Assembly (NCBI GenBank): GCA_040753575.1
Contig: JBFMEC010000004.1
Coordinates: 1-36,923 of the forward strand
DNA from: Nitrospirota bacterium
Lineage (GTDB): Bacteria; Nitrospirota; Thermodesulfovibrionia; Thermodesulfovibrionales; SM23-35
DNA: 36,923 nt
Direction of reading: 5' to 3'
How positions within the stretch are numbered: the stretch's first letter is position 1; each line of letters begins with the position of its first letter. Of the stretch, positions 21,744 to 36,923 are shown in pieces. Under the pieces are notes generated by a model, which saw only the letters and a list, made by a program, of their open reading frames with translations, searched no databases and was not told the DNA's origin. A program made the position numbers and the translations under genes.

Positions 21744-21887
21744 CACATAGTCTTCAAACATATCAGGAAAACGTTTTTTAAACTTAAGCGCAATGCCCGT
21801 GCCCATAATGCCGACAGTGTTTACCGTATTTACAAGTGTCTGGCACTTAGATTCAAACAAATCGCCGACTGAAACTTCAATCATCAA
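21705..21887 (-). pseudogene. Truncated macrodomain (DarG-like ADP-ribosylglycohydrolase N-terminus)
   Basis: GDLF...LVNTVNTVGIMG.GIALKFKKRFP matches DarG-type macrodomains. Similarity stops after about 48 aa where the MBL remnant begins. Confidence 0.8.
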
Positions 21888-22237
21888 TCGCCATATAAAT
21901 CATTGAATATTTTTTTAACTGTTTTTTCTAATGGAACTAAATCTTCCTCAATCGTCTGCCAGACAATATTGAGGTCAATACCAAAATATTCATGAATAAG
22001 CTTGTTCCGCATTCCAATTATTTCCTGCCACGGCGCCTCTGGATATTTCTCCCAAATATTCTGTGGAATTTTGTTTGCTGCCTCCCCGATAATTTCTATA
22101 CTTCTCACTACAGCTTTAAAGGTCTTTCTATCTCGAACAAAATTTTCAAACGGCATCCCTTTCGTGAATTCTTTTATATCAGTTATTGATTCCAGTATAT
22201 CATTAAGATAATCCTGCAACAGTCTCTCTTCAGACAT
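21884..22237 (-). CDS. HEPN (DUF86/HepT-like) ribonuclease toxin
   Basis: AVVRSIEIIGEA, PWQEIIGMRNKLIHEYF (RX4H motif). Confidence 0.93.
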   Translation of the reverse strand: MSEERLLQDYLNDILESITDIKEFTKGMPFENFVRDRKTFKAVVRSIEIIGEAANKIPQNIWEKYPEAPWQEIIGMRNKLIHEYFGIDLNIVWQTIEEDLVPLEKTVKKIFNDLYGD

Positions 22238-22523
22238 ACTTTACCTCTTGAAGAATCCTTTTGCCAATATAGGGCTTTAAAGCCTTCTTTGTTACAAGAT
22301 CAACTTTGATGCCGAGTATGTCGGAAATTCTATTTTCCAGTTTTATGAATTTCACAAAACCTATGGGTTTTTCTAGTTCGATAAGAACATCTACATCGCT
22401 GATTTTTTCCTGCTCGCCTCTGACATAGGAGCCGAAAAGCCCAATTTCTTTAACCCCGTACTCCTTCTTCAAGTCTTCCTTGTGTCGCTTAATTATTTCC
22501 TTAATTTCTTCAAAAGTCTTCAC
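22230..22523 (-). CDS. Minimal nucleotidyltransferase (MntA-like) antitoxin
   Basis: GLFGSYVRGEQ...SDVDVLI and KVDLV motifs; overlaps the HEPN start. Confidence 0.93.
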   Translation of the reverse strand: MKTFEEIKEIIKRHKEDLKKEYGVKEIGLFGSYVRGEQEKISDVDVLIELEKPIGFVKFIKLENRISDILGIKVDLVTKKALKPYIGKRILQEVKYV

Positions 22524-22635: not shown

Positions 22636-24201
22636 TCATCCTAAAATAATCGGGTTCCCCTTAGTTGGAACATGCAGCTTCTTTGAATCAATATTTCTTT
22701 TGAAAAACTCGGGGTTCTCCGTATGAACGGGGATGACAAATTGTGGGTCAATAGTTTCGATGAGTTCTAATAGGTCTGGACCCGTAATGTGCCCGGATGA
22801 ATGAAACCCTTGTTCTCCATCAGGCACTTTTCCTGTATTGACATCAGGCACTCCCATGGGCTGCATCTGGAACAGGTTTAGCCAGTTTCTTAGTCTAACA
22901 ATATCGAACTTTTGTTCCTCGTCGAAAGCTTCGCTTGAAGAGTAGATATACATTGTCCCGGGTTCGGGATCAATCTCTATGAGCTCATTGATATCCCAGA
23001 AGCTAAAACAAAGGATATAATCAGCACCATCCTTTTTTACCTCTTGAGGATCAACACATCTGTGTTCATATCTGGCATATACCTGCTCTTCCCATTTATC
23101 GAGGCGCTTTGGCTCCTTATAAAGATAAACTACTTCGTCTTGCTGTGGTGGGATAATCAGGTCTGAAGCCAGCGAAGCAGCTTCCAAAAGATAAATATCT
23201 TTGGCTGTGACTACCAGCTTTCGTTTGCAGTCTTTTGCTATTTCTCGGAATGTTAAAAGGCGCTCAAGATTTCTCGGACCGAAGTCTGCTATAACGAGAC
23301 TGCTGCAGTTTTGAATAACATCAAGTGCTCTGGCATAAACCGTAGCTTCATCAATAGCACTATCCACATCGACATGAGTGCCCTCACAAATCAGAGCAAG
23401 GGGGTTCAGAGCTCTGGCTGCCTCTGCAAATGCTCTGGTAAGTGAGCTATGTTTGCCATGTGTTCTTAAATCCCCTGTATAAACGACCCTACCCTGGCTT
23501 GTTTTCAAGGCAAAAGCTGTGGCGCCGAATATTGAATGGTCTACCGGGAATGCTTTAATTGGCAAGCCCGCAATGGTTTCTACCTTGGTCAAATTACATG
23601 AGACAATATCTCTGCTGCCAGGTGTGTTTCCCCAGAATTTGCATCCTTCTTCAGAAGGGTCAAAATCGCATACCTTAAAAGGACGTTGCTGCGCTTCAAA
23701 TTTCCTATAATTACCTGACTGAAGTAGACCGTCGCTTTCTACTTTAGGAATTAGATAGCATACTTCCTTCTCAAAGTCTGATTTTGATGAGTCTTGGATT
23801 GCCTTAGCAATATATGCGGTACAAAGGCTGGACACTATTGGAATATCTTGACGAAGGAAAGAGATATATCCGCTGTGGTCTAAATGAGCGTGGGATAAAA
23901 GAACCCCATGGAGTTCAATCTTACGGATTGGATAAGGAACACGCACTCTTGACCAGATATCGATAGTCTCTATTTCTAAGTCTTGCCTATAGATACCCTG
24001 TAGAGGAGGTAGCAAGCCCATGTGTAACATGTCGAGCAGTCCTCGCCGAGGGCGTGGGACCAAGTACTCTTCAAAATACTTGTTACGAAGATTAAAATTA
24101 ATGCCGAAGTCAAAAAAGAGGTTAATTCCCCTGTCTTCCAGCAGAATTTTGTTCCCCCCTATTGTATCTGCTCCATCATATACTGTAACAGTGACCATCA
24201 T
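22636..24201 (-). CDS. Metallo-beta-lactamase/beta-CASP nuclease (RNase J-like)
   Basis: IGGNKI, FDFG, SHAHLDH, VDHS, YTGD, HSSGH and IPVH motifs. Confidence 0.88.
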   Translation of the reverse strand: MMVTVTVYDGADTIGGNKILLEDRGINLFFDFGINFNLRNKYFEEYLVPRPRRGLLDMLHMGLLPPLQGIYRQDLEIETIDIWSRVRVPYPIRKIELHGVLLSHAHLDHSGYISFLRQDIPIVSSLCTAYIAKAIQDSSKSDFEKEVCYLIPKVESDGLLQSGNYRKFEAQQRPFKVCDFDPSEEGCKFWGNTPGSRDIVSCNLTKVETIAGLPIKAFPVDHSIFGATAFALKTSQGRVVYTGDLRTHGKHSSLTRAFAEAARALNPLALICEGTHVDVDSAIDEATVYARALDVIQNCSSLVIADFGPRNLERLLTFREIAKDCKRKLVVTAKDIYLLEAASLASDLIIPPQQDEVVYLYKEPKRLDKWEEQVYARYEHRCVDPQEVKKDGADYILCFSFWDINELIEIDPEPGTMYIYSSSEAFDEEQKFDIVRLRNWLNLFQMQPMGVPDVNTGKVPDGEQGFHSSGHITGPDLLELIETIDPQFVIPVHTENPEFFKRNIDSKKLHVPTKGNPIILG

Positions 24202-24461
24202 CCATTCATCTCACAATGACTGCCATTAAATATTGATCTATAATCTTTAGCAAAATATGTCAATTGTTGATTTGTTAGGAAGTTACCGTTTCTTTCATAG
24301 ATAAAATACTTTTTGCATGTCTGCATGCCATGCCCTAAGTTTCTCTGCTGAGAAATTCCGGCAAGAAAGAGATATAGACAATTTTGTATTCATAGAGGGA
24401 ACGAGAAAAAACATATAAATCAAAAACTTATGTACTGCTTTTGGCGAATTCATTTTAAAAT

Positions 24462-25266
24462 TCACACTACTTTTATTTTATAACGCCATTTTATAAATCT
24501 TTCAATTATGCCCTCTGGGATTGCTCTTGGGCAATCAACAGGCATACTTAATACTTCGGTAATTCTCTTTACTAAGGCAGCCTGCCCGAATGGGTATATC
24601 TGCTTTTCAAAAATCATTGCATAGCCCCCTCTTTTAATTATCGCAAAATTGTAACAGCGGCCTAAGTCCTAAATATTCGCAAATTTCTAGTTTAATAGAA
24701 AGTTCATCTTCATCTATATAATCGAACGTATTTTTCACCTCACATCCGTAAACTATTCTGTCTTTTTCTATTATGAAGTCTAAATCATGATTAGTTTTTA
24801 TCCACTTTTTCCCTTTGAACTCATTTATGTCTTGTCCTTGCGAAAAGAAGCCTTTTGCTATTAGCGCGTTAAAAAACAGAACATCTGCTTGTTCTCCACA
24901 AGCCATTGCTATTTCGTGGTGTGAGTATTCTCTAATCACTTGGATAGCCTTTTAGTTGCTCTTTTGTAATACCTATACTTTGGATTAAAAACAAATTTAA
25001 ACCCTTGTTCCTTTTGCTAAAGGAACCTCAACCTCTTCCATCTTCAAACGGCCTTCTTCTATAAGTTCTCTTATTGCTTTTGCGGTTATCCAGTGGAAAA
25101 ACTGTTTTTCAAATGTCACTTCTAATTGCTTAATGTAAAAGACAGCCTGAGGATTTTGTCTGAAAAAACTTTTTAGACTTTCTTTAGCTTCGTCTATCTT
25201 TACATCTCTGGGCCACTCTTCTACATCGTAATAATCACTATAATCATAAAACTCTTCGTCAAACAT
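24462..25266 (-). pseudogene. Frameshifted PD-(D/E)XK nuclease-like gene
   Basis: ORFs 24997-25266 and 24634-24939, plus a C-terminal frame (IIKRGGYAMIFEKQIYP...ERFIKW), join through about three frameshifts. DLDF...CEVKN catalytic-like motif. Confidence 0.65.
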
Positions 25267-25286
25267 CGGTCCTTACGATAGATTAT

Positions 25287-25547
25287 TTATTTGCATAGAG
25301 AATTTTCGACTACTTGAATCTCCCCATCTGTTAGTCCATAGAGTTTATGAACAATCTGGTCGATGAGCCAGTCAGTTTTGTAGAGTTTTTCTTTCAAGGG
25401 CAAAAGTTTTGATAGGGATTTTTCGTATTCGGATCTGATGTTTTCATAAAGCTCCCTGGATTTGAGATTTGCCCCGATTCTGTTTCTGTTTTTCTCCAGA
25501 ACTTTCCAGAAGTCTTCAAAAGATAAATGTTCTTCCCTCTTTCTCAT
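25287..25547 (-). pseudogene. Orphan C-terminal fragment of a type IIG/Eco57I-like restriction-modification enzyme
   Basis: KTDWLIDQIVHKLYGLTDGEIQVVE matches the ID..VY.LYGLT.EEI..VE terminus of that family; no N-terminal part is present. Confidence 0.75.
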
Positions 25548-25649
25548 AGTCTTCTACGTAAGAAAGCTTATTAACCCTATCCAGAGCTTCCTCAACAATC
25601 ATCCAACGTGTAAAAGTCTCAGACATAGATTTATTCAGCAGTAAATACA

Positions 25650-26780
25650 CTAATTATCCCCCAATAACATTTGTATCTCGTTTAATAAAATTACTTCTTT
25701 ATCCCTGTAATGTTCTGGGACGTTCAAAAAATATTCCCATGCATTATTCAATATAAGAACAATACTTGACTTTTGGACAGATGTCGAAGATTGCTGGATA
25801 TATGATTTTAATTGAATTTCCTGACATGCTTTATAAGTATACTTTGCTAAAGATTCAATTAACTGATCGGGATAGCAAAGTCTATATTCCTGTGGTTCAA
25901 TATTACCTGCTATAGACTTATAATGATTCCATTTTTCTTCCATTTTATTATTACCAATTTTTAGTAATCTCATCATTGCAAAGATTCCCCTCATACGTGA
26001 TTCATCTGAAGGATGAATAGCTCCTTCATAAAAACCTGGATAATAAATATTCCGAGTCATTCCAGCACAAAGGCGTAGATGTTGCCAGCCAAAGGCTGGA
26101 CCAGTTATATAAGTTGCAATCATATCTGATATAAATTCCTTGACCCAGCGGTCTTTCCATTGTTCAAAAAGGTGCATATATCCCTCAATATATCTGTTAG
26201 GTTTCTGTTCTCTTTTAACCCGCTGTATTTCGGCTCTGATATAATCTTTCAATTCCTCCAGAAATTTTGTAAGAAGCCTATCTTCGTATTTGTACAATAA
26301 GATATGACCTAATTCATGGCAGAGGTCAGGAAGGCCTAATAGAAAATCTGATTCCAGAGTTGATGAGCAAATCAGATTAAAGTCAGGTTTTGTCCAATAA
26401 TACTGGTTACTAAAACATGCTATTAAAGGTGGTGGTAATGGATAATTTATTTCTTTTACCAGAAGTTTACAAAACCTTGTAATCTTCTGGTCTGTCTTGT
26501 TGTAACGGGTAACGAATGGCACAGGAAAGGATTCGATGAAATGTAATCTTTCAACTAAACGATTATAGTCTTGTAAATGGTTTTGAAGTAGCTGTAAAGC
26601 GCCAAAAGCAGGGTCCTTGAGGATTTGTTGTGCTTCTATAGTTATTTTTTCGAGTCGTTCGATAATTTCACCAATATATTCTCTAACATCTTCATGATAA
26701 CTCTCTTTACTTACTAACAGCCTTAATACATCACATCTACTTAATAAGTCTATCAAAAGTCCTTGAAGGAACTGATCCAC
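25650..26780 (-). CDS. HEXXH zinc-metallopeptidase-like protein (pAgo operon gene 5)
   Basis: LCHELGHILL, downstream KEFISD (third ligand Glu) and HPSDESR, as in M48/ImmA-IrrE-like gluzincins. Confidence 0.7.
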   Translation of the reverse strand: MDQFLQGLLIDLLSRCDVLRLLVSKESYHEDVREYIGEIIERLEKITIEAQQILKDPAFGALQLLQNHLQDYNRLVERLHFIESFPVPFVTRYNKTDQKITRFCKLLVKEINYPLPPPLIACFSNQYYWTKPDFNLICSSTLESDFLLGLPDLCHELGHILLYKYEDRLLTKFLEELKDYIRAEIQRVKREQKPNRYIEGYMHLFEQWKDRWVKEFISDMIATYITGPAFGWQHLRLCAGMTRNIYYPGFYEGAIHPSDESRMRGIFAMMRLLKIGNNKMEEKWNHYKSIAGNIEPQEYRLCYPDQLIESLAKYTYKACQEIQLKSYIQQSSTSVQKSSIVLILNNAWEYFLNVPEHYRDKEVILLNEIQMLLGDN

Positions 26781-26783
26781 TTT

Positions 26784-27227
26784 TCATTTTCTCCACATCT
26801 CTCTAAATATTCGAGAAGTTTCTGAATCCGCTAAAGCACAAAGTTCGTCCAAAAATTTTATATCTTTATCAATAACTTTATCTATTCCAAGCTCAAGGTG
26901 CCTCTGTACTTCTTTTAAGTCCTGAATATAAAAATTAAATTCTCCACTCTTAGCCTCTCTAATCTTTTCGATAAAACTGCCAGGTATACCTCTTTCCACT
27001 TCTTCACCATGAAAATTTCGTGGTTTTTCAAGCAATAATAAATCCTCGATGCCATGTAGGATTTCGCATAGGTTTTCTATATTGGATTCAACATCCCTTC
27101 TATCTATTAATTCACAGCCAGGAAGTTTATAAAACAACTTTTTTACAATAATAGTTGCCTTATTAATCCGTTCTGAAAGATGTGAACTTGTTTTATATCC
27201 ATGAGACAGAATACCTAATTCACTCAT
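26784..27227 (-). CDS. Small, probably all-alpha hypothetical protein (pAgo operon gene 4)
   Basis: 147-aa ORF; its start overlaps the pAgo stop (ATGA) and it ends 3 nt before the next gene. No recognisable motif. Confidence 0.8.
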   Translation of the reverse strand: MSELGILSHGYKTSSHLSERINKATIIVKKLFYKLPGCELIDRRDVESNIENLCEILHGIEDLLLLEKPRNFHGEEVERGIPGSFIEKIREAKSGEFNFYIQDLKEVQRHLELGIDKVIDKDIKFLDELCALADSETSRIFREMWRK

Positions 27228-29593
27228 GACTTCACCTCCATATTCATTTCAGAATCATCTTCCAATTCCTCTTTTTCATCCCATTCACTTTCATAAATGG
27301 CTTCATCAAGCTCAAACTTGCTCGCAATAGGCTCTAAGAGATCATCGGCGAGCCTTATTGTAACTGGAAGCCTGCCGCACTTATCAGGGGATGACCATAT
27401 AAGTTGAGAAAGATTAAAAATATCCTCAATGACCTTTTTAATATCAAGATTCCCATCAGCTATGACAGCGTGTAAAGGTTTAACCGTGCCCTGCGATATA
27501 AAGGGGCGCCCTGTATTACAGACTATTGCCTCTTTTGAACTGAGTAAAAAATAACTGCCAAGTGTAGAATTATCATATGGAGTATCTGTCCTACCTTCAA
27601 CAAGGCGAACATGATAGGTTCGAGTTTTCCGAATTTCAACTATACCTGTTATTACGTCAGATGGTAAGATGCCTTCTCTTTTTAAAGCCTTAAAAGCATC
27701 CTGTGCACCATCTATCTCTGATAATCCTGTACGTCCATCCCTATGGATAACAATTGAACCAGGCGAAAGCTTTAAATGGCGAAGGTCTTCCTTTAATGCT
27801 TTAGAAAGAATGGTAAAAATTTGGCGACGGGAAAGCCTTTCTTTCTGTGAGCAACGATAATCTCTAAAATAACAGTCCTTTCCATTATTATAGATAAAGG
27901 TAAAACCTGCAATCTTATTTAAAACATCAATGCCGATATAAACATCGTAGTTTAATGGTGTTTTCAGTGCCCAAAGCCATTTTCTGTTAACCTGTAGTAG
28001 GCCAAAGGTGGTATTCTTGATATAAGATTTATATTTTTGTTGAAATTCCTCTTTGACATTATATCTTGTAATTCCGTTGTCAACTTGAGGGGCATAATGT
28101 TGCTTTATTTTTTGCTCTTGAGCACATTGAAATTGGAAATTAGGCCAAAGTTCCCTTTTTATATAATCATGCAGATCTGGCTTAGCATCTTCAGGTAGAA
28201 CAATCAGTGCGTAACCCTGTTTAATATTTGCGTTATCAAGGGCAATTTTTATTGCGTGAAATTGTTTGTACAGGGTTTTGCAGTTGTTATTGGAATATAC
28301 AACCCTTTTAGGGTTATAGGGATTTGGGTTTAACTTTTGAACCTCACATTTCAATCTTTCTATATAATCCTCTTGAATATCTCTTGGAAGAGTCTCTGGG
28401 GAAATAATATATTGAGCGTCAAATGGCGTGGTATTTAAAGGACCAGCATCTTTATCAAATAATAGCTTTATCCGCTCTTTACCTAAGGATAAATAGCTTA
28501 CACCATGATCTTCGCGGTTTCTACAGACGTGAAGAACCTGTCCTTTACCAAAAATCTGATCAGGAATATAGAAAAAATCCTTCTTTTTCTCTAATGGTTT
28601 TTTAGATATTTTGATAGGAATACCGTTTAAATCTGTTTTCTGGAAATAATTTTCAAGAATTTTCTCAATCCGCTCAAACCGCTCTGTAGGAGATAAAATG
28701 GTTTTCTGATGGAGTTTCCGAACTTCAGGGGCATCGGTAGAATATTTTAGCTTGCAAAGAGCTGCAGCGCCATAATACTTTTCTGATTCCTTCCCAGGAT
28801 AGCGGTAAAGAATCGCCTCACTATCAGGGTTTAAATTTCTTATATAATCTGGAGAATTATAAGGAAAATGATTCTTTGTATAGGTGTAAACATCAATAGG
28901 TTGACCAGTATTTTTATCAGGAAATCTCTGTTCTCTTATGCTTTTTCCAAGTGGATTTACCAACTGAATTTCAAACCAGTTTTTACTGTGATAGACAAGA
29001 TGTTTTCCTCTGTAATCTAAAAGTTGACGCCCGTTAGCCCTTTCCATTAGCCATAATTTATCAACGTATCTATTAACTATATCGATCGAAAGAAACAGTA
29101 TGGCATTAGCCGGCACTACAGAAAAGATAAAGCCCTCATAAATATCAACAGTAGACAAAGAGCCAAGAGATAAAGGCTCCTTCTCAAAATATCTATGAGA
29201 TCTCCCCCACAGGGAGACGTCTTTCATTAGAGGGCTACGTAAAGAGTATTCCAAAAAACTTAGCGCCACAGGTAGACTTTTTGATTCGAGCTTGTTAAAG
29301 GACAAATGGTGAGTTAGGTTCTCTGGCCTTAATTCTGCGATATGGCGGATTACCTGATATTCAGACTTTTGAATTATTGTATCCCTAGGGATCGTAAATA
29401 TGATTTCGGGCCTGGTACTTACAAGTGCTACTGGCTGTTTGAGTTCGTAAATCAAATTTTTTCGTAGCAGTTCGACATTTTTTTCGTATGTTTCATCTTC
29501 TGGAAGAGAAACTTTTACAAATCTATACTCACATTTCAAATCTGCAAGGTTTTCGATCGCAAAAAGATTAAAACAATGACGGCTCATTTTCAA
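27224..29593 (-). CDS. ago: Long prokaryotic Argonaute (N-PAZ-MID-PIWI), catalytic DEDD tetrad apparently intact
   Basis: 789 aa. PIWI motifs VYIGIDV, QKERL, IVIHRDG, IVEIRK, QGTVKPL, DIFNLSQL.W and RLPVTIRLAD; MID-like LHDYIK...FQC. Start is TTG 29593 or ATG 29587. Confidence 0.92.
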   Translation of the reverse strand: MKMSRHCFNLFAIENLADLKCEYRFVKVSLPEDETYEKNVELLRKNLIYELKQPVALVSTRPEIIFTIPRDTIIQKSEYQVIRHIAELRPENLTHHLSFNKLESKSLPVALSFLEYSLRSPLMKDVSLWGRSHRYFEKEPLSLGSLSTVDIYEGFIFSVVPANAILFLSIDIVNRYVDKLWLMERANGRQLLDYRGKHLVYHSKNWFEIQLVNPLGKSIREQRFPDKNTGQPIDVYTYTKNHFPYNSPDYIRNLNPDSEAILYRYPGKESEKYYGAAALCKLKYSTDAPEVRKLHQKTILSPTERFERIEKILENYFQKTDLNGIPIKISKKPLEKKKDFFYIPDQIFGKGQVLHVCRNREDHGVSYLSLGKERIKLLFDKDAGPLNTTPFDAQYIISPETLPRDIQEDYIERLKCEVQKLNPNPYNPKRVVYSNNNCKTLYKQFHAIKIALDNANIKQGYALIVLPEDAKPDLHDYIKRELWPNFQFQCAQEQKIKQHYAPQVDNGITRYNVKEEFQQKYKSYIKNTTFGLLQVNRKWLWALKTPLNYDVYIGIDVLNKIAGFTFIYNNGKDCYFRDYRCSQKERLSRRQIFTILSKALKEDLRHLKLSPGSIVIHRDGRTGLSEIDGAQDAFKALKREGILPSDVITGIVEIRKTRTYHVRLVEGRTDTPYDNSTLGSYFLLSSKEAIVCNTGRPFISQGTVKPLHAVIADGNLDIKKVIEDIFNLSQLIWSSPDKCGRLPVTIRLADDLLEPIASKFELDEAIYESEWDEKEELEDDSEMNMEVKS

Positions 29594-30455
29594 ACCCTAT
29601 GCAAAGCTTTTTAAAATTACAATATTTACAAGTCATCGGACTATTTGCAAAGTCGAAGTCCTGGGTGTCCTTTAAAAATTTAAGCTTTGAACTACTCCGA
29701 AAAATAAAATCTTCAGCATATTCTAAATCATCAGTTGTAAAGGAGTAATGTGTAATCTCGCCTTTAAGTAAATTTGCCTCATATACTTCTGGTATGACTC
29801 CATATCTTTTATAGCCAGCCAAAGAATAAATCAACATTTGCTTTGAATTATCAGATGTTTCGCTGTCCGCTACTTTCCAGTCAATTATAATTGGTCTTTT
29901 TTCATTAAAAAGAAAGAGGTCTATATATGATTCGACAGTTATTACATCGAGTTTGAATAAAAGCGATTTTTGTATTTCAAAGTCGGAAGATTTATAAAGC
30001 ATGTTTAGTAAATCTTTCCACTTACTTAAGTTATCCATACATCTTATGACATTAGAAAATATTTCTGCTATTTCTATATCATTAATTTCTTCTCCATATT
30101 CGTGTTCAAAAAGGGCACAAAATTCGCAGTTTGCAGAAGATTTACTCATTTTGGGTTCGCGATACCTTCTGGCTTTTGAAAAAGAAAACTGTCTTTTCCC
30201 TAGGTCTAAAATTTGATTTGTTACAGTATCCAGATTGAGAGTTTGTTTATTCTTAATTTCTGGTAACACATAGTATTCAATTCCCTTTTCTACAAGACTG
30301 CCCTGCCATTTTTTACAGTTTCGAAGTTGCTTTAAAATATATGCTTCTCTTCGAAAGGGTTCTTTCTGAGCATTATGGTGTGCTAAAACATGGGCAAAAT
30401 AATACTGCCTGTTGCATCTACGAAAAGCGTTGTGGGCTGATATCGACCATTTCAT
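29568..30455 (-). CDS. Cas4/AddB-like PD-(D/E)XK nuclease with a putative 4Fe-4S cluster
   Basis: WS.S....F..C.RQYYF at the N-terminus, YIDL, IIDWK, QMLIY, and C-terminal CKYCNFKKLC. Confidence 0.88.
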   Translation of the reverse strand: MKWSISAHNAFRRCNRQYYFAHVLAHHNAQKEPFRREAYILKQLRNCKKWQGSLVEKGIEYYVLPEIKNKQTLNLDTVTNQILDLGKRQFSFSKARRYREPKMSKSSANCEFCALFEHEYGEEINDIEIAEIFSNVIRCMDNLSKWKDLLNMLYKSSDFEIQKSLLFKLDVITVESYIDLFLFNEKRPIIIDWKVADSETSDNSKQMLIYSLAGYKRYGVIPEVYEANLLKGEITHYSFTTDDLEYAEDFIFRSSSKLKFLKDTQDFDFANSPMTCKYCNFKKLCIGFENEPSLF

Positions 30456-30799
30456 GGTTTTTGTTTTTTCTTTTTTTCCAAGTAGGTTAAGAAATCATCC
30501 CATTCTTCTGGCTTTTTAATAAATTCAGTAGCCTTCCTAAAAAATTGCAATGCTTTTTTATCCGATACTACCTTAGAAAGACTCCCAGGGACTTTATTGG
30601 CAAGCCCTAAAAGTTCAATCTCATCGGCATCAAGGGCCTCAGCTAAGGCTTGAATAGTCTTTATAGATGGGGTATAAGGCAATTGGTCATTCTCTATTTT
30701 GCTTAAATAGGTAAAATCTAATTGAACAATCTCGGCTAACTGCCTTTGTGTCAATTTTTTCTTTTTACGTAAATCACGAATTTTTCGCCCAAATGTCAT
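30452..30799 (-). CDS. XRE-family helix-turn-helix regulator (pAgo operon gene 1)
   Basis: MTFGRKIRDLRKKKKLTQRQLAE...TYLSKIEN...PS...LAEAL. Start chosen at ATG 30799; the stop overlaps the nuclease start (ATGA). Confidence 0.92.
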   Translation of the reverse strand: MTFGRKIRDLRKKKKLTQRQLAEIVQLDFTYLSKIENDQLPYTPSIKTIQALAEALDADEIELLGLANKVPGSLSKVVSDKKALQFFRKATEFIKKPEEWDDFLTYLEKKKKQKP

Positions 30800-30805
30800 A
30801 TATAA

Positions 30806-30834
30806 TTGATAACATATCTTGATGTTGAAGTCAA
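30806..30834 (-). promoter_or_regulatory. Putative promoter/operator of the pAgo operon (possibly leaderless)
   Basis: TTGACT-N17-TATCAA with an extended TG, 6 nt before the XRE ATG; inverted repeat AACAT-N6-ATGTT in the spacer. Confidence 0.5.
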
Positions 30835-30871
30835 GTGCAATTTTAATAGGAGGCACCATATTTCCGTTAAT

Positions 30872-33800
30872 TTATCCAAACAATTCCCCCTGCAACTTCT
30901 GTAAAATCTTGTTCTGCAATTTCTGGCTTGCGATGGAGGAAATGTAGTCGGAGATTATTCGGTCTATTCTCTCCTTAAGCTCTTTAAGTTCAGGAAGGAT
31001 TTTTAATATATATGATTCATCTTTTGGAACCTTTACCACCTCAAGTCCTGATTCAAGCCATATCTTCAAATACTCTGCCTCTACTTCACTATGGCACTCT
31101 ATATGATCTTTATCTGATGAGAGAAGCCACCCAGACCCCTTCAAAAAGTCTTTTTTAATCTGAATTTCTTTTGTGGGATGAAAAAGCTTGACTGTTTTAA
31201 GGCTCTTCTGGTTGAGAATTTTTTCTCTGTAAAAATGACCAAGAAGTTTGTCGCCAAGTTTTTCTTTTATTGTTCTTGTTAAAAGTTCAACATCGATACC
31301 TTCTTTTGCCTTTCCTTTTTTGCCAAAGCTTTTTGCCTTCTCTATCCTTGACCTCACAAGGTCAACAACTGCTCGATAAACCTCAAGCTGTTCATCCTCC
31401 GTCAATCCAAGAATGTCACCCATGATAATTTTGTCAAGTTCTCGACGGTCAGGCTTAACCTTCTCAAGAAAGACTTCATCAGGGGAAACAGATCCAAGCT
31501 CATCAAATATGGATAGAACCTCTCGCGTTTTTAATTTCTCAAAAACAGAGAAGAGTTTTACGTTTGAGATAATTTTCTGAGTAGGAACTCCAAGCATTTT
31601 TAGCCAATATACGTTTGTGTATACCGCACCTTCTCCAAGGTTAGTAATACCACTTATTTCAATTAGTAAAGGAATGATTGTGCTATTTAAAAATGCCAAT
31701 ACAATGTCGTAGTCTTTTTTATTGTGAACTTTGATGAAGAAAAACCTTTTATCACCCCATGTATTTTGCGTTTCATAGACAGCAAATCGGACATTGTAAG
31801 CATCAGACCAAACAAAGTCGGGCTTATCCCAAATTCCCAAATCATACCATCTTTCACCGCGGCTTGCACATGTTGGTCTTAAATGATAGCCTTGTTGTTC
31901 ACCTTTTTTAATCCACCGTAATATATTTGTTTTACTAAGTGCTTTTTTATCTTTATGAATCATTAAGACACGAAATTTTAAATCTTTCCGTTTAACAGTT
32001 ATTGACTTGCATTCCTTTGAACTCTTGATGATGTAATTCGGTAACCATTCACCTTTCTCATTCTTATGCATCCAGAACTCTTTTTCTATGCCTCTCTTTT
32101 TTATTTCTTCTTCAGTAAGATAAAAAAACTCATTAGCTCCTGTCTTAATGCCAAATCTCACATCTGCTTTTTCTTTTAAAGGAACAAGTTTATCTTTGCC
32201 TTTCTCAAGAATCTTAAAGAATACCTCTGGGGCCCTGAGATATTTCCCCCATTTAGAGCCAGTGTATTTATCTTCCTCAGCATCAAAACCTTCTTCCCAT
32301 AGTTCACTTTGCTTTTTGGGATAGATTCTATACTCATCGGTCTGATAAAAATTACTATGAATAAGAATCGTCCTTTTTAGTTTTTCGATGGCATCAAGTC
32401 TTTGCTTTTGTTTCTCCCACATGTCATGGGCAGGAGGAATAAAATGCCTTAATGGCTTAAAAAGATAGACAAACCTTACAAGGTTTTCATCCCTTTCTTT
32501 CTGGTCAGTACACTTTTCAAGGATTATTATGCAGGTGTTAATATCTGCATCCTCAAACCATCGCTCAACCTTAGATTCAATTATCACAACGATTTTGTAG
32601 TTCTTAAGAAATAGCTCTTGAAGTCCCTTCCCATAATCAACATCCATCCATGAATTCGAGACTATAAAGCCAAACCGTCCCCCATCTTTTAAAAACTTTG
32701 TCCCATGAACAAAGAAATAGGCATGAATGCCGGCCCTCTTTGAAATATCAGCCAGTTTCCTTTTCCCTTCAAAAAGGGCTTTGTCTATCATGGATTCTTT
32801 GTAACTCTCTTTCCCTGTGATTTCTGTAATCTCCTCCTGCCTTGTGTAAGGAGGGTTTCCGACAACACAGTCAACAGCCTTTGGATAGGGAATAAGGATC
32901 TTTTTTCCGCTGAGGGTTGCAAGTCCTTTTTTTCGGGCTTCATCTCCACCCATCCTTTCCATTGGAGATAAATTAAAAAAATCTTCATTCAATATTTGAG
33001 GATAATTTTCATCCACCGAAAGGTCATTTACAGCAAGATTTATAGTTGAAAGATGGGCAGGGAACTTGGCAATGTCAACACCCCATAGAGTTTTCAATAT
33101 TTCTTGATGAGGTGTACGAAGATTCATCAGTCTTTTATGCTGATAAGCCCTTACAAGAAAAGTTCCTGCACCACACGCCGGGTCAACCACTGTATCATCT
33201 TCATGCTTAATACAAAATCCCAAGATAAGGTCAACAATATCAGGATTGGTGAAATATTGACCTAAATTATGCCTTTCTTCCTGTGGTATTAATCTCTCAA
33301 AGATTCTTCCGATAATATCAAAGCCTATCTTAGAGAAATCATATCTCTTGAGAATTTTGATAAGCTCTTTTATTTCCTCTACAACTGCCCTGTTTTCTGG
33401 AAAGGCAATCTGGTCAATAAAATCAGTGCTGTATATGGTTTCATAATCGATTTCCTTAAGGACATAATCAAAATACCCCTGAAGGTTTGTTTGCAGAAGC
33501 CCCCCTTTTGTGAGGTCATCTGGAATAGTAAGAGAATCAAGCTGTCCTGATCTTTTGGACTGGAGCACATCATAAAAGAGGATTTTGTTTATGAGAAGGT
33601 ATGCAGTCTGTCTCGCAGCCTTTTCAAAGTCACTATCCGAATAGGTAAACGTCCATTGCTGTTCAACAAACCATTTTTTGAATTTCTTTAAGAAATCAGT
33701 ATTCTTATGTGCTTCGTCTCTTATAATTGGTTTGTAATATCTCGCAAGACGGTATATCTTTTCTTGAAGTCTGAATATTAAGAATTCATCTATTGGTAAG

Positions 33801-34366
33801 AGTGGCTCTGGTTTTATCCCAGTATGAATCCTGACAAGTTCTTCAAGAAATTTTTCAATGCCTTTGAGGATAGTATTTTTAAATCTTGCATCTTCAATAT
33901 CGTCTAAGTTTTCAATGCTTGATAGAGGGAATTTATCAATGATCTGTCTCTCTTCAGGCTCCATCCTGTTTGCCTTTTCAGTGTTAAACCAGATGAGCCA
34001 TTGAAAGTTTGAAGTCGCAAAGTATTTTGCCTTTCTCTTATTTGCCTTTTCCCTTGCAGGGTTCTTTAACTCCTTTTCATCAAATGGGCTGAAATACGGG
34101 GGCTTCAGTTCAATGAGGCATAGTACCCTCTCACTTTTTGGACTTTCAAAAATAACTATATCAGGTTGTTTTCTATCAGCGCCAACGGTCTCCTGTTCAG
34201 CAATACCAAGAGGCAGGTTTCTTTCTTTAATTATCTGATTTATCCACTCAACAAACTTCTGGTTGGCAGTTCGTTCAGTCTTGTGGACACCTATATCAAA
34301 TACTGATGCCTTGAAAATATCTGTTCTGGTCTTACTTGAGATTTTGCCCACTTTTTTACTTTTCAT
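30872..34366 (-). CDS. Type IIG-like fused restriction endonuclease / N6-adenine methyltransferase
   Basis: N-terminal PD...IELK nuclease motif, GQYFT, DPACGAGTFL (motif I), VGNPPY (motif IV), and a C-terminal TRD region (VRFGIKTGANEFF). Confidence 0.92.
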   Translation of the reverse strand: MKSKKVGKISSKTRTDIFKASVFDIGVHKTERTANQKFVEWINQIIKERNLPLGIAEQETVGADRKQPDIVIFESPKSERVLCLIELKPPYFSPFDEKELKNPAREKANKRKAKYFATSNFQWLIWFNTEKANRMEPEERQIIDKFPLSSIENLDDIEDARFKNTILKGIEKFLEELVRIHTGIKPEPLLPIDEFLIFRLQEKIYRLARYYKPIIRDEAHKNTDFLKKFKKWFVEQQWTFTYSDSDFEKAARQTAYLLINKILFYDVLQSKRSGQLDSLTIPDDLTKGGLLQTNLQGYFDYVLKEIDYETIYSTDFIDQIAFPENRAVVEEIKELIKILKRYDFSKIGFDIIGRIFERLIPQEERHNLGQYFTNPDIVDLILGFCIKHEDDTVVDPACGAGTFLVRAYQHKRLMNLRTPHQEILKTLWGVDIAKFPAHLSTINLAVNDLSVDENYPQILNEDFFNLSPMERMGGDEARKKGLATLSGKKILIPYPKAVDCVVGNPPYTRQEEITEITGKESYKESMIDKALFEGKRKLADISKRAGIHAYFFVHGTKFLKDGGRFGFIVSNSWMDVDYGKGLQELFLKNYKIVVIIESKVERWFEDADINTCIIILEKCTDQKERDENLVRFVYLFKPLRHFIPPAHDMWEKQKQRLDAIEKLKRTILIHSNFYQTDEYRIYPKKQSELWEEGFDAEEDKYTGSKWGKYLRAPEVFFKILEKGKDKLVPLKEKADVRFGIKTGANEFFYLTEEEIKKRGIEKEFWMHKNEKGEWLPNYIIKSSKECKSITVKRKDLKFRVLMIHKDKKALSKTNILRWIKKGEQQGYHLRPTCASRGERWYDLGIWDKPDFVWSDAYNVRFAVYETQNTWGDKRFFFIKVHNKKDYDIVLAFLNSTIIPLLIEISGITNLGEGAVYTNVYWLKMLGVPTQKIISNVKLFSVFEKLKTREVLSIFDELGSVSPDEVFLEKVKPDRRELDKIIMGDILGLTEDEQLEVYRAVVDLVRSRIEKAKSFGKKGKAKEGIDVELLTRTIKEKLGDKLLGHFYREKILNQKSLKTVKLFHPTKEIQIKKDFLKGSGWLLSSDKDHIECHSEVEAEYLKIWLESGLEVVKVPKDESYILKILPELKELKERIDRIISDYISSIASQKLQNKILQKLQGELFG

Positions 34367-34649
34367 AATCTTTTAAGACCTGATTAACAATTCTTCGGGC
34401 AATCTCAAAAGCGGCAGCAATTCTTATGATCTTTACATCTCCTAACCCCTTTATCTCAAGAAATTTACTCAGGGGCTGGTTTGCCATGCCTTTAAAAGAG
34501 CCAAATTTACGGAGAATCTCTTTGGCAACATCCTCTGCTGTTTTGCCTTTAGTGCCCGTAGAAATGAGAATTGCCAGAAGCTCCGCATCTGTTAACGATT
34601 CCGCACCAAGTTCTCTCAGTTTTCCGCCTGGATGCATCCATGTTTTCAT
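34356..34649 (-). CDS. Stand-alone RadC N-terminal (UPF0758 HhH) domain protein, copy 1
   Basis: P..KL...GAESLTDAELLAILI.TG and IKGLG..K..I.AAFEI.RR; no JAB/MPN domain. Confidence 0.85.
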   Translation of the reverse strand: MKTWMHPGGKLRELGAESLTDAELLAILISTGTKGKTAEDVAKEILRKFGSFKGMANQPLSKFLEIKGLGDVKIIRIAAAFEIARRIVNQVLKDYEK

Positions 34650-34667
34650 AAAATTCCTTCTACGGAC

Positions 34668-34721
34668 TTATTTAACCACATGGCCTAATTGTATGTCTAT
34701 TAATGTGGATCAATTAGGGAG
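34668..34721. repeat. 54-bp junction repeat, copy 1
   Basis: TTATTTAACCACATGGCCTAATTGTATGTCTATTAATGTGGATCAATTAGGGAG; internal inverted repeat CCTAATTG-N19-CAATTAGG. Confidence 0.95.
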
Positions 34722-34782
34722 GTCTGGGGGCAGGGGCTTGAAAAACTGAAGGTTTTTCAGTGAGCTTGGTTTCCTTCATTTG

Positions 34783-35193
34783 TCATTTCCTCATCTTCAG
34801 AAAAGCCTTTGGTGTAGTGATTTTAATGCCCCTAAACTGCTTTAGAGATAAAAAACTTTTGTCGCCTGTTATTATAAACTTTGCATTAGCCGTGAGTGCA
34901 CATTCTATAAACTTGTTATCTTTTGGATCAGGTGTAACCTTTAGGTTCACTTTTGGTGTGTAAAAATCTGAATGTGCCAGAACAAATTCCAAAATTTCTA
35001 TTTGAAGTTTTATTGGGAAACTAAGTTTCGGGTACGAAAGCGCGACAAAAAGCTCGTTAAAGATTTCTTCTGAGATACAGTTTCTTATTTCTTCTTTTTC
35101 TAATAGCTCAACAACTTCTAAAGGTCTGCCTCCCCATCCAAAGGCAGAAATGAAAATATTTGTATCTATTATTGCTTTTTCGCTCTTGCCCAC
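34783..35193 (-). CDS. PIN-domain toxin (PIN_3 type)
   Basis: IIDTNIFISA, DPKDNKFIECA and IITGD motifs. Confidence 0.92.
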   Translation of the reverse strand: MGKSEKAIIDTNIFISAFGWGGRPLEVVELLEKEEIRNCISEEIFNELFVALSYPKLSFPIKLQIEILEFVLAHSDFYTPKVNLKVTPDPKDNKFIECALTANAKFIITGDKSFLSLKQFRGIKITTPKAFLKMRK

Positions 35194-35411
35194 CTAACCG
35201 CCTCTTCTGCAACTTCAACAGGCAATCTCTTCTTTTTTGTAATTTCTGAGGCTTTTTTATAAATACTTTTTGCAGAAGGCGGGGCAAGCAGCTTTTTCTG
35301 AATAAGAGAATCCATTATTTCCTTTATCTCTTTAAAAGATAGCGTAGAAAGCCCTTCAATCAGTTTCTCTTTTGGTAATTTTATGGCAACATCTGCCACT
35401 ATAACCTCCAT
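35169..35411 (-). CDS. Putative antitoxin of the PIN toxin
   Basis: 80 aa, directly upstream of and overlapping the PIN gene; ends EAVRWAR. Confidence 0.7.
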   Translation of the reverse strand: MEVIVADVAIKLPKEKLIEGLSTLSFKEIKEIMDSLIQKKLLAPPSAKSIYKKASEITKKKRLPVEVAEEAVRWARAKKQ

Positions 35412-35413
35412 TT

Positions 35414-35710
35414 TTATTCCTTATTATACTCTTTTAATACCTGATTAACAATTCTCCTTGCAATCTCAAAGGCAGCAGCAATTCTGATAATCTTAACATC
35501 TCCAAGTCCTTTGAATTCAAGAAACTTCTCAAGTGGCTGGTTTGCCATTCCCTTGAAAGAGCCAAACTTATCAAGGATTTCCTGTGCAACTTCTTCTGCT
35601 GATTTTCCTTTTGTTCCGGTTGAAATGAGGATTGCCAAAAGTTCCGCATCAGTTAATGATTCTGCTCCAAGTTCTCTTAATTTACCGCCTGGATGTGTCC
35701 ATGTTTTCAT
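35414..35710 (-). CDS. Stand-alone RadC N-terminal (UPF0758 HhH) domain protein, copy 2
   Basis: 9 substitutions over 97 aligned residues relative to copy 1. Confidence 0.85.
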   Translation of the reverse strand: MKTWTHPGGKLRELGAESLTDAELLAILISTGTKGKSAEEVAQEILDKFGSFKGMANQPLEKFLEFKGLGDVKIIRIAAAFEIARRIVNQVLKEYNKE

Positions 35711-35728
35711 AGGGTTTCCTTTACGGAT

Positions 35729-35782
35729 TTATTTAACCACATGGCCTAATTGTATGTCTATTAATGTGGATCAATTAGGGAG
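35729..35782. repeat. 54-bp junction repeat, copy 2
   Basis: Identical to 34668-34721. Confidence 0.95.
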
Positions 35783-35829
35783 TTCAGGGAATATAGGATC
35801 TTAAAGGTGGGTGGACTTTAGCTTATAAG

Positions 35830-36039
35830 TTATGCAACTTGAAGTTTCTTTTCCATTAATTTAAGCACATCCTTAAACATATGGGATGCCTTAAATAATT
35901 CCACTCCAATAAGGTTTCCTTTACTATCGAGCTCCATGTTTACGCCGGGAGAAATTTCTACAACTTCTGCTTCTTCCCCTTCTTTTGCAATATATAGAAT
36001 ATCTTCTTCATCATCATAAAAGACCTTGAAATCTTCCAT
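35830..36039 (-). CDS. DUF2283-family protein (putative antitoxin)
   Basis: YDDEEDILYI...EISPGV..ELD..G.LIGVE pattern; start at ATG 36039 via a TAATG overlap with the upstream ORF. Confidence 0.88.
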   Translation of the reverse strand: MEDFKVFYDDEEDILYIAKEGEEAEVVEISPGVNMELDSKGNLIGVELFKASHMFKDVLKLMEKKLQVA

Positions 36040-36194
36040 TATATTTTCCTCCACCTGCCTGATTTTATTCGACTTTCTTTTTGTCCCTCTATAAATCTTT
36101 CCTCTGCATCTTCAAAGATCTTTTTAGGGAGTTCATAATCTATTTTTCTTAAGGCAGTTTTTGTTTTAAGATGTTTTGAATATTTGATTTGCAT
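36039..36194 (-). pseudogene. Short (51-aa) DUF4258/RelE-like toxin partner, apparently internally deleted; absent from the ORF track
   Basis: MQIKYSKHLKTKTALRKIDYELPKKIFEDAEERFIEGQKESRIKSGRWRKI, preceded by GAGAAGG and coupled to DUF2283. Confidence 0.6.
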
Positions 36195-36272
36195 AGTTAA
36201 CCTTCTCTTACCTCATCGTTTTCGGCTATTTTGTCTTTTCTGGAAATAAGGCTTAGGGATTTTTTTATGGAC

Positions 36273-36326
36273 TTATTTAACCACATGGCCTAATTATATG
36301 TCTATTAATTTGGATCAATTAGGGAG
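36273..36326. repeat. 54-bp junction repeat, copy 3
   Basis: Two mismatches to copies 1 and 2; abuts the stop codon of the radical SAM gene. Confidence 0.93.
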
Positions 36327-36327
36327 T

Positions 36328-36923
36328 TCAGGGCAAATTGTGTTCGTAAGCAGAAGGCGGCTTGATATTATATTCTTTATCCAGGCTATAAGCCATAATT
36401 ACGGCTTTGTCTATTTCCTCATAAGGAAAGTCACGTGTACCTAATATAAGATGTGGGGCCTTATCATCGAATTTGAGAGCAAAGTCATGGCTTTTTTCGT
36501 AAAGGACAGTACCGGGAAGGACATGAAGGATACTGAAAATGATTGTTGCAGGCCCTATGTCTATTAATGTTTTGATGGATTTTACAAACTTGAAAAAATT
36601 ATCTCCGGGCAGACCGATAATCAAATCAGTAATCATTTCTATACCATTCTCCCTTAAAAGCCTTGCCGCCCTTCTAAACTTTTCCTCATTGTAATAGCGA
36701 TTAACATTTTTTAACGTCTCTTTATTTACGGTCTGCGGGCCGGTCTCCACACTTTTAACATTAGCTTTCTTGAAAAGGGCTACTGTCTCTTCATCGACAA
36801 ATTCTGCAATGATCTCGATTGTGCGTAGTTCAGTTCCAAAACGGTTAGACCGGGAAATCATTTCTACTATCTTTTGCATTCTCTCCTTTCTAAAGTTGAA
36901 GATAGTGTCAACGAAGTGGAAAC
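36328..36923 (-). CDS. Radical SAM protein, C-terminal part (5'-truncated by the window edge)
   Basis: Frame stays open to the window end (FHFVDTIFN); VETGPQT...L..V.R, DLIIGLPGD and L.VLPGT.L motifs. Confidence 0.85.
   Translation of the reverse strand, partial: FHFVDTIFNFRKERMQKIVEMISRSNRFGTELRTIEIIAEFVDEETVALFKKANVKSVETGPQTVNKETLKNVNRYYNEEKFRRAARLLRENGIEMITDLIIGLPGDNFFKFVKSIKTLIDIGPATIIFSILHVLPGTVLYEKSHDFALKFDDKAPHLILGTRDFPYEEIDKAVIMAYSLDKEYNIKPPSAYEHNLP

Follow-up and report, generated by a model that had tools for sequence, protein, structure and literature searches.

A metallopeptidase-like gene and a small partner gene as a candidate latent protease module of DNA-guided, RNA-cleaving Argonaute cassettes

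The prokaryotic Argonaute (pAgo) proteins closest to the one considered here include PliAgo and MbpAgo, which use DNA guides to cut RNA (PMC9360449; PMC13346755), and PliAgo, RslAgo, PnyAgo and HpeAgo have been described as cutting RNA in vitro when purified alone (PMC9360449). According to the text of the same paper, the genes of this DNA-guided RNA-cleaving (D-R) class lie in operons of constant composition, in which the gene of the pAgo follows a PD-(D/E)XK nuclease gene together with a helix-turn-helix (HTH) gene in the PliAgo group or a sigma-70 gene in the PnyAgo group. We analyzed a 36,923-nucleotide stretch of a Nitrospirota bacterium genome (assembly GCA_040753575.1, contig JBFMEC010000004.1; hereafter the window) that carries five tightly packed minus-strand genes, encoding in this order an XRE-family HTH regulator, a Cas4-like nuclease, a long pAgo, a 147-amino-acid protein and a 376-amino-acid probable zinc metallopeptidase, which we call the zincin. 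The junctions between them are, in gene order, a 4-nucleotide overlap, a 26-nucleotide overlap, a 4-nucleotide overlap (ATGA) and a 3-nucleotide gap. This cassette shares with the published D-R operons of the PliAgo/RslAgo and PnyAgo/HpeAgo groups the pAgo class, the preceding nuclease, the HTH gene and, in its Bacteroidota branch, sigma-70 (PMC9360449); the text of that paper mentions the nuclease and either an HTH or a sigma factor but no downstream pair, which its figure 1b or supplements may draw. The subject of this study is that pair, the last two genes of the cassette, which we propose, with a probability of roughly 45%, to be a latent protease module and a fixed part of the five-gene D-R pAgo cassette.

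A protease with a small partner and a sigma factor or regulator is known from CRISPR type III, where CalpL/CalpT/CalpS contains a protease of the Lon type. Craspase (type III-E gRAMP, TPR-CHAT, Csx30, Csx31 and RpoE) resembles the cassette in that a guided RNA-targeting effector is accompanied there by a protease, by a small protein and by either a sigma factor or a regulator, but its protease is caspase-like and its setting is CRISPR type III (as described in PMC11106740). CapP/CapH, ImmA/ImmR and IrrE/DdrO share with the cassette a zinc peptidase and an XRE-type HTH repressor in a defence operon (as presented in bioRxiv 2022.04.27.489752). These switches differ from it in that the peptidase belongs to the M78 family, has a shorter ligand spacing and carries a GAF sensor, the two genes are adjacent, and the modules are optional and shared. 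Among the Argonaute systems, BPAN (a long-B pAgo with bAgaN) also unites a pAgo and a PD-(D/E)XK nuclease; as set out in the text of PMC10620215 its pAgo is inactive, its RecB2-type nuclease is encoded downstream and it has no protease pair, whereas here the DEDD site is intact and the nuclease is Cas4-like and upstream. APACE1 (a long-A pAgo with the Cas4-family protein ACE1) is portrayed in PMC12094033 as a two-gene DNA-targeting operon with no protease pair.

By its sequence the pAgo of the window belongs to the published D-R class (PliAgo, RslAgo, MbpAgo) and would, by homology, cut RNA. Its best PDB matches in a phmmer search were MbpAgo (9wmd, E 6e-103; identified as MbpAgo via PMC13346755) and PliAgo (7r8f, E 4e-70). 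The DEDD tetrad is intact, with D556, E585, D619 and D750 aligned to D563, E592, D626 and D762 of PliAgo; in 19 cassette pAgos the first three of these residues were invariant and D750 was at least 90% conserved. The Cas4-like nuclease has one N-terminal and three C-terminal Cys residues, the pattern expected of ACE Cas4-family enzymes. The first-pass annotation of this DNA had placed an XRE HTH gene at the head of the operon, and the Pfam match to HTH_3 (Table 1) agrees with that placement. Because the homologues of this regulator align only from residue 20–23 onward, its true start is probably Met21, at position 30799; a TTGACT..17 nt..TATCAA arrangement lies just upstream of this position, read by eye and absent from the list of the automated scan.

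We scanned one genome per species with an alignment of the zincin, which yielded 60 loci in many phyla. In tblastn searches with the window proteins, both the Cas4-like and the pAgo genes were found in 45 of the 50 zincin loci that had at least 3.8 kb of upstream sequence; two of the other five gave a weak pAgo match only, and three gave neither (L017 and the broken fragments L058 and L059, the former fragment beside transposase genes). One of the 45, L018, retains only remnants of the two genes. A small open reading frame of ~120–150 amino acids ended at or overlapped the zincin start in 53/60 loci, and three of the remaining seven loci were cut by a contig end. Iterative profile searching joined 52 of these 53 small proteins with the window protein into one family (53/54 sequences). 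In L017, the small reading frame picked first fell outside the family, and a neighbouring one matched the window protein by tblastn.

The reverse direction was examined in metagenomes, since within the phylum 2/401 sampled genomes yielded the pAgo, which did not suffice for counting in reverse; such rarity is as expected for a mobile island. The metagenomes were scanned with the pAgo alignment alone and the best 80 of 201 relatives were kept, which are the closest relatives, so that the result holds for this pAgo clade only. Both the small protein and the zincin were present in all 72 loci with at least 1 kb downstream, the nuclease in 68/68 loci with upstream room and a recognizable XRE gene in 55 of 63. 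The native RslAgo operon has the same layout: plasmid pRUNSL03 of Runella slithyformis encodes an HTH protein, a PD-(D/E)XK nuclease and proteins of 801, 125 and 378 amino acids, the last three annotated as hypothetical and the downstream pair being WP_013921748.1 and WP_013921747.1. An HTH gene heads 41 of 46 cassettes, 24 of them recognized as HTH_3 by Pfam and 17 as divergent members by hhalign. The latter are the proteins of ~198 amino acids without a Pfam match in the Bacteroidota branch, which hhalign identified as divergent XRE homologues (90.9%, E 1.2e-6); there a sigma-70 gene precedes the divergent XRE gene, and Sigma70_r4_2 was found in 17/19 second-upstream reading frames.

The members of the cassette also diverge together. 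In 46 complete loci, the correlation of distance matrices (rho) was 0.86 for zincin and pAgo, 0.84 for Cas4 and pAgo, 0.84 for zincin and Cas4, and 0.66 for the small protein and zincin, and each of these values exceeded those of all 200 permutations. Relatedness alone yields such correlations, so they show inheritance as a unit and not contact.

The two open reading frames that the first-pass annotation had drawn for the pair stood as drawn (Table 1), and so did its description of the zincin: the HELGH, the distal E(FIS)D and the HP...R of a gluzincin were all located and are conserved in homologues, and the absence of a transmembrane segment agrees with a highest 19-residue Kyte-Doolittle mean of 1.32 (0.71 for the 147-amino-acid protein, which likewise has no stretch of transmembrane grade). 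Among 118 homologues with 24–77% identity to the window protein, H155, E156, E215, H256 and P257 were invariant and H159 and R262 were at least 90% conserved. In the 53 full-length zincins, which are those of 52 genome loci and the window (8/60 loci were excluded because the gene was cut, shorter than 330 amino acids or contained X), all seven of these residues were invariant together with E83 and D152. The Glu and His residues, whose conservation had been named beforehand as a point on which the assignment might fail, are conserved. Judged from the sequences, the motifs are not a product of chance. At 90% identity the family falls into 115 clusters, and at 50% identity it has 454 representatives (E <= 0.001). 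All 115 clusters were unnamed or labelled "hypothetical", except one labelled "uncharacterized membrane protein". On viral contigs, 26 pattern matches were obtained and none of them was a relative.

An AlphaFold2 model of the full-length zincin (predicted local distance difference test score [pLDDT] 97.2, from a 118-row alignment) comprises, in order, a three-helix bundle (residues 1–94), three short strands (119–138), the HExxH helix (151–164), the helix bearing E215 (196–226) and a helical C-terminal part, and beyond residue 151 it is all-helical. When this model was compared with known structures by VIA-align, helical bundles matching residues 1–94 filled the list, and the domain of residues 95–376 was therefore modelled alone (pLDDT 95.6, 52-row alignment). 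Among 48,161 chains, the top match of this domain was E. coli BepA (Z 7.7, root-mean-square deviation 4.5, 141 residues aligned), followed by ZMPSTE24 (7.4), Zmp1 (7.0), neprilysin (6.6) and the M48-like 3c37 (6.5), and further down by abylysin (5.9), Ste24p (5.8), BlaR1 (5.1) and thermolysin (4.8); PprI/IrrE and Spartan (6mdx) were listed at Z 4.5. Zinc metallopeptidases make up nearly all of the 50 rows, and this near-uniform content and the motifs leave a zincin fold as the only reasonable reading even though no single Z is safe. The fold prediction that the first-pass annotation had called for gave a zincin core that, at Z values below 8, appears closest to the M48 peptidases (BepA, ZMPSTE24).

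A profile of the zincin domain aligned over 170 columns with 24 M48 domains, drawn from relatives of this genome, which brought HExxH, E-x-x-(A)-D and HP-x4-R into register. The M48 peptidases (HtpX, BepA/YfgC, Ste24/ZMPSTE24, Oma1) and the minigluzincins have, like the zincin, a co-linear HExxH, an E-x-x-(A)-D helix ~55–80 residues further on and an HP-x4-R motif. Unlike the M48 enzymes, the zincin is predicted from its sequence to be soluble and cytoplasmic with no transmembrane segment, and it has its own three-helix bundle, a C-terminal helical domain and a small partner. The hhalign probability for the zincin domain against the M48 set was only 12.5% (E 0.0023), and for this reason we call the zincin M48-like and do not file it in M48; Pfam PF01435 (M48) gave no match even at E up to 1. 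In the ESM Atlas, the nearest named clusters were Peptidase_U49 (feature score 0.79, template-modelling [TM] score 0.33–0.51) and M48, both leads only, and YgjP-like or MPTase clusters were among the weak structural neighbours. We regard it as highly probable that the zincin is a soluble zinc metallopeptidase of M48-like type, that its set of conserved catalytic residues is complete and that it co-occurs and co-diverges with the pAgo.

The first-pass annotation had also compared the zincin with ImmA, IrrE and CapP, that is, with a classical M78 protease activated by single-stranded DNA. The gluzincin type is retained and the family membership is not. In favour of the latter are the HExxH followed by a Glu ligand, the presence of an HTH gene in the operon, the PADLOC capH match of that gene's product (E 1.2e-11) and the occurrence of PprI/IrrE among the structural neighbours; the capH match, however, spans the generic HTH_3 core, M48 enzymes rank above IrrE, PF06114 (M78) gave no match even at E up to 1, the zincin model contains no GAF-like beta-rich C-terminal domain, and the second His and the Glu ligand are 56 residues apart (H159 to E215), as against 29 in CapP (H100 to E129, as given in bioRxiv 2022.04.27.489752). 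As a family assignment the M78 explanation is contradicted, and we consider it very unlikely; the functional analogy is kept in the explanation that we favour below.

The 147-amino-acid protein had no family match in Pfam, PADLOC, NCBIfam or PDB sequences, and the ESM Atlas gave no usable feature match, with all structural rows below a TM score of 0.5 by query. A word-index search found only 4 relatives, and the family was rebuilt from the positional homologues upstream of the zincin. This family evolves fast (mean column identity 23% in 57 sequences), and its N-terminus is the most conserved part: Ser2 is invariant, Met1 and Tyr11 are at least 90% conserved, and the consensus after Met in PliAgo-type loci is SDISVLSHEY.

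When the partner and the zincin were predicted as a complex, the score was 0.91, while the best of three controls scored 0.00. A score of 0.91 was reached by 58/80 solved complexes and by 2/110 mismatched pairs, rates that are approximate because our own alignments were used. The runs agreed in at least 88% of contacts, with a partner pLDDT of at least 89. In the model, partner residues 1–10 lie in the catalytic cleft, where they contact zincin residues 127–133 of the edge strand, D152, H155, E156, H159, 214–215 and 255–256, and the partner helices pack on bundle residues 57–84 and on the helices 162–189 and 198–218; the predicted interface is very large (~136 contacts). The placement of the plug agrees with the independent pattern of N-terminal conservation. 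On the basis of the model we think it likely that the two proteins form a 1:1 complex in which the partner helices dock on the N-terminal bundle and the conserved N-terminus, with its invariant Ser2 and probably beginning with Ser after removal of Met, fills the cleft and keeps the enzyme off. The earlier idea that the pair is a toxin with its inhibitor gains support to this extent, as residues 1–10 are predicted on H155, E156, H159, E215 and H256.

Insertion of an inhibitor's first residues into the cleft, with the free N-terminus near the zinc, is known for TIMPs and for APRin/Inh of serralysins, which act extracellularly or in the periplasm. The predicted plug recalls TIMP and APRin in its invariant Ser2 and in the position of residues 1–10 on the HExxH helix; there is no relation between the folds, and for the present pair the geometry is a prediction. 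CapP is kept inactive by a cysteine switch within the protein, which obstructs the active site (as reported in bioRxiv 2022.04.27.489752). The concept resembles that of the predicted plug, but the CapP inhibitor acts in cis and the zincin plug would act in trans.

The size of the interface and the co-divergence of the pair with both pAgo and nuclease also bear on another explanation, in which the heterodimer would be a constitutive accessory subunit and not a regulated switch. Its function could then be the maturation or recycling of pAgo or Cas4-like complexes, the removal of proteins from invader DNA for guide making, as by DNA-dependent proteases of the SprT/Spartan type, or the hydrolysis of a non-protein substrate. 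Spartan and the YgjP-like or MPTase clusters among the weak structural neighbours are consistent with such a role, and an interface of this size is as found in obligate complexes. Yet the purified pAgos PliAgo, RslAgo, PnyAgo and HpeAgo cut RNA alone (PMC9360449), which shows that the pair is dispensable for catalysis, and shows only that, and the predicted active-site plug favours regulated over constitutive activity. We judge this explanation improbable.

For the latent protease module that we favour, a possible course of events is as follows. The zincin would be held latent by a trans-acting plug, its co-translated 147-amino-acid partner. An infection signal would displace or remove the plug, and the protease would then cut its target; candidates for the signal are the engagement of a target by the guide-loaded pAgo, nucleic acids produced by the Cas4-like nuclease, and a phage factor. 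The preferred target is the cassette's own HTH repressor, which would make the pair an ImmA/CapP-like derepression switch built from unrelated parts, keeping a pAgo potentially able to cut host transcripts low until it is needed. By analogy with CapH/CapP, ImmR/ImmA and DdrO/IrrE, this target is suggested by the HTH gene at the head of nearly every cassette, and an RNA-cutting, DNA-guided pAgo has an obvious need for tight control. We favour the HTH repressor only tentatively, and slightly, over an abortive-infection target.

The alternative is that the zincin is an abortive-infection or signalling effector, comparable to Lit or Craspase, whose plug would be freed when the guide-loaded pAgo recognizes its RNA target, and which would then cut a host protein or another protein from outside the cassette. 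Translation factors, anti-sigma-like factors and phage proteins come into question as its substrate, and the outcome might be growth arrest or an HTH/sigma-70 transcription programme. This alternative appears somewhat unlikely to us. A protease kept off by a co-encoded partner, as in the predicted complex, resembles toxin-antitoxin logic, and the universal and exclusive association with pAgo and the co-divergence argue for an effector. Lit, which cleaves EF-Tu, is a precedent, and Peptidase_U49, the family of Lit, was with M48 the nearest named ESM Atlas cluster, as a lead only. An RNA-guided precedent is given by Craspase, which cuts Csx30 (as described in PMC11106740), and the sigma-70 gene added in the Bacteroidota branch, as in the operons of PMC9360449, is in line with a transcriptional outcome. 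In a homologue of 609 amino acids (P0201), the zincin is followed by a caspase-like domain of the CHAT type (E 4.3e-9), which also favours an effector; the fusion is, however, possibly a read-through of two adjacent genes, as suspected because an internal Met precedes the CHAT part. Four other long homologues (P0226, P0209, P0145 and P0127) had no Pfam domain in their extra parts, and P0209 is an ordinary pAgo-linked member of the family. Against the effector, the pAgo retains its own DEDD nuclease site, so that a separate effector is not required, no substrate candidate was found, and Pfam PF10463 (Peptidase_U49, Lit) did not match the zincin.

A related possibility, which we hold to be rather unlikely, is a protease switch coupled to the Argonaute, as a counterpart of Craspase: once the DNA-guided pAgo recognizes invader RNA, this would be relayed to the zincin-plug heterodimer, the plug would leave, and a regulator or host protein would be cut, with a transcriptional (HTH/sigma-70) or abortive-infection response.

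Several observations weigh against the latent protease module with the HTH repressor as its target. On the side of the enzyme, no profile in Pfam, NCBIfam, PADLOC or PDB sequence searches names the zincin, Foldseek found no match at E <= 0.001 for the full model against PDB or for the domain model against PDB and BFVD, the best VIA-align Z of 7.7, being below 8, lies within the tool's warning range for common arrangements, and the hhalign probability against M48 was low. The complex expresses a model's confidence, obtained with our own alignments, and is no measurement. On the side of the target, when the XRE, Cas4-like, pAgo and zincin proteins were searched with a matrix of the partner N-terminus, no look-alike scored above shuffled sequences; the idea that the plug is a pseudo-substrate mimicking a site in a cassette protein was rejected on these scores, and nothing from this search points to the HTH protein as substrate. 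The zincin gene is three genes away from the HTH gene and not adjacent to it, unlike capP and capH, and the zincin lies outside the M78 family. Regulator modules of the known kind are optional, and different defence systems share them; a pair that is present throughout one pAgo clade, and so far nowhere else, fits better to a core effector.

The coordinates of the cassette and of the motifs discussed above are collected in Table 1.

Table 1 Genes and motifs of the pAgo cassette (positions are those of the window)
Feature	Position	Strand	Basis
XRE-family HTH regulator, first cassette gene	30452..30859	-	Pfam HTH_3 E 8.5e-14; PADLOC capH E 1.2e-11
Cas4-like PD-(D/E)XK nuclease	29568..30455	-	PADLOC Aga_Cas4-like_Nuc E 3.4e-55; Pfam PDDEXK_1 E 5e-9
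Long pAgo, 789 amino acids	27224..29593	-	PADLOC pAgo_II E 6.9e-157
147-amino-acid helical partner, predicted lid/plug of the protease	26784..27227	-	no family match; positional homologues
Partner N-terminal motif MSELGILSHGY	27195..27227	-	conservation in 57 sequences; predicted in cleft
376-amino-acid M48-like gluzincin (probable), GTG start, last cassette gene	25650..26780	-	homologue family; AlphaFold2 model
Zincin three-helix bundle, residues 1–94, carries invariant E83, docks partner helices (predicted)	26499..26780	-	model; interface residues 57–84
HELGH, residues 155–159, presumed two zinc ligands and catalytic Glu	26304..26318	-	motif, conservation
EFISD, residues 215–219, Glu215 presumed third zinc ligand, on long helix 196–226	26124..26138	-	aligns with M48 E-x-x-A-D
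HPSDESR, residues 256–262, HP-x4-R motif common to M48 peptidases	25995..26015	-	aligns with M48 HPP-x3-R

Together with other defence genes of the window, the cassette falls within a low-GC (guanine plus cytosine) stretch, ~24000–36923, with a GC content of ~0.35 compared with ~0.42 elsewhere in the window, a drop that fits a horizontally acquired island. Upstream of the cassette, a type IIG Eco57I/MmeI-like methylase-restriction enzyme of 1164 amino acids (30872–34366, minus strand) ends 12 nucleotides before the XRE reading frame, and a 60% identical type IIG homologue stands at the same place in a Dehalococcoidia locus (L002:1-2394); the type IIG enzyme and the Argonaute cassette may travel together. 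Right after the cassette, an 86-amino-acid reading frame (25287–25547, minus strand) matches only the last ~77 positions of the PADLOC type IIG REase_MTase profile (E 1.7e-5). It may be the remnant of a second type IIG gene, which would hint at insertion of the cassette beside or into such a gene. Two nearly identical reading frames of ~97 amino acids (34356–34649 and 35414–35710, minus strand) look by eye like the RadC N-terminal part, and the pair of 136 and 80 amino acids between them resembles by eye a PIN toxin with its antitoxin, in what appears to be a local duplication. A protein of 521 amino acids with an MBL-fold and beta-CASP (RNase J-like; 22636–24201, minus strand) adjoins the cassette and matches the type VII Cas14 model weakly (E 4.2e-5, far under the 800-bit cut-off). 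Just outside the low-GC stretch lies a toxin-antitoxin pair of a HepT-like RNase and an MNT nucleotidyltransferase (21884–22523, minus strand).

Some cassettes of other genomes deviate from the common layout or have unusual neighbours. In three loci (L017:5407-7291, L018:6271-9077 and L060:3098-4571), little or nothing is left of the Cas4-like and pAgo genes, while the XRE, small-protein and zincin genes are kept; remnants of both missing genes are seen in L018 and L060. The trio may be able to persist alone, or this may be simple decay. Immediately after the RslAgo cassette (L170:6950-9129, pRUNSL03), genes annotated as a multiubiquitin-domain protein, a ThiF-family adenylyltransferase and DUF6527 resemble a defence set for ubiquitin-like conjugation, carried by the same conjugative plasmid. 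At three Nostoc loci (L011:1070-16990, L012:1064-9143 and L013), the Cas4-like, pAgo, small-protein and zincin genes directly follow Tn7-like genes, namely a tnsB-like gene (584 amino acids), tniB (276) and tniQ (167), and L011 and L012 are without an HTH gene. An Argonaute-guided transposon was considered for these loci and rejected, because cas12k lies further downstream in L011, which makes the cassette a cargo of a type V-K CRISPR-associated transposon.

The first three genes of the cassette are already published, and we found the last two, the small protein and the zincin, discussed in no paper: our literature searches returned no protease described for any Argonaute system and no discussion of the downstream pair, and the text of PMC13346755 on MbpAgo makes no mention of an operon. 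What is new here is the reverse-association count, the identification of the Bacteroidota upstream gene as an XRE homologue, the predicted active-site plug and the link to the native RslAgo operon. PliAgo, RslAgo, PnyAgo, HpeAgo and MbpAgo are studied and engineered as lone proteins for programmable RNA cleavage; in nature, the D-R pAgos are accompanied by a conserved protease together with the plug predicted for it. As the pair is present in the native RslAgo operon of a cultured and harmless bacterium, the question is directly testable. Should the pair prove to be a switch, Argonaute systems would have their first protease arm, and it would be explained how a pAgo potentially able to cut host transcripts stays safe.

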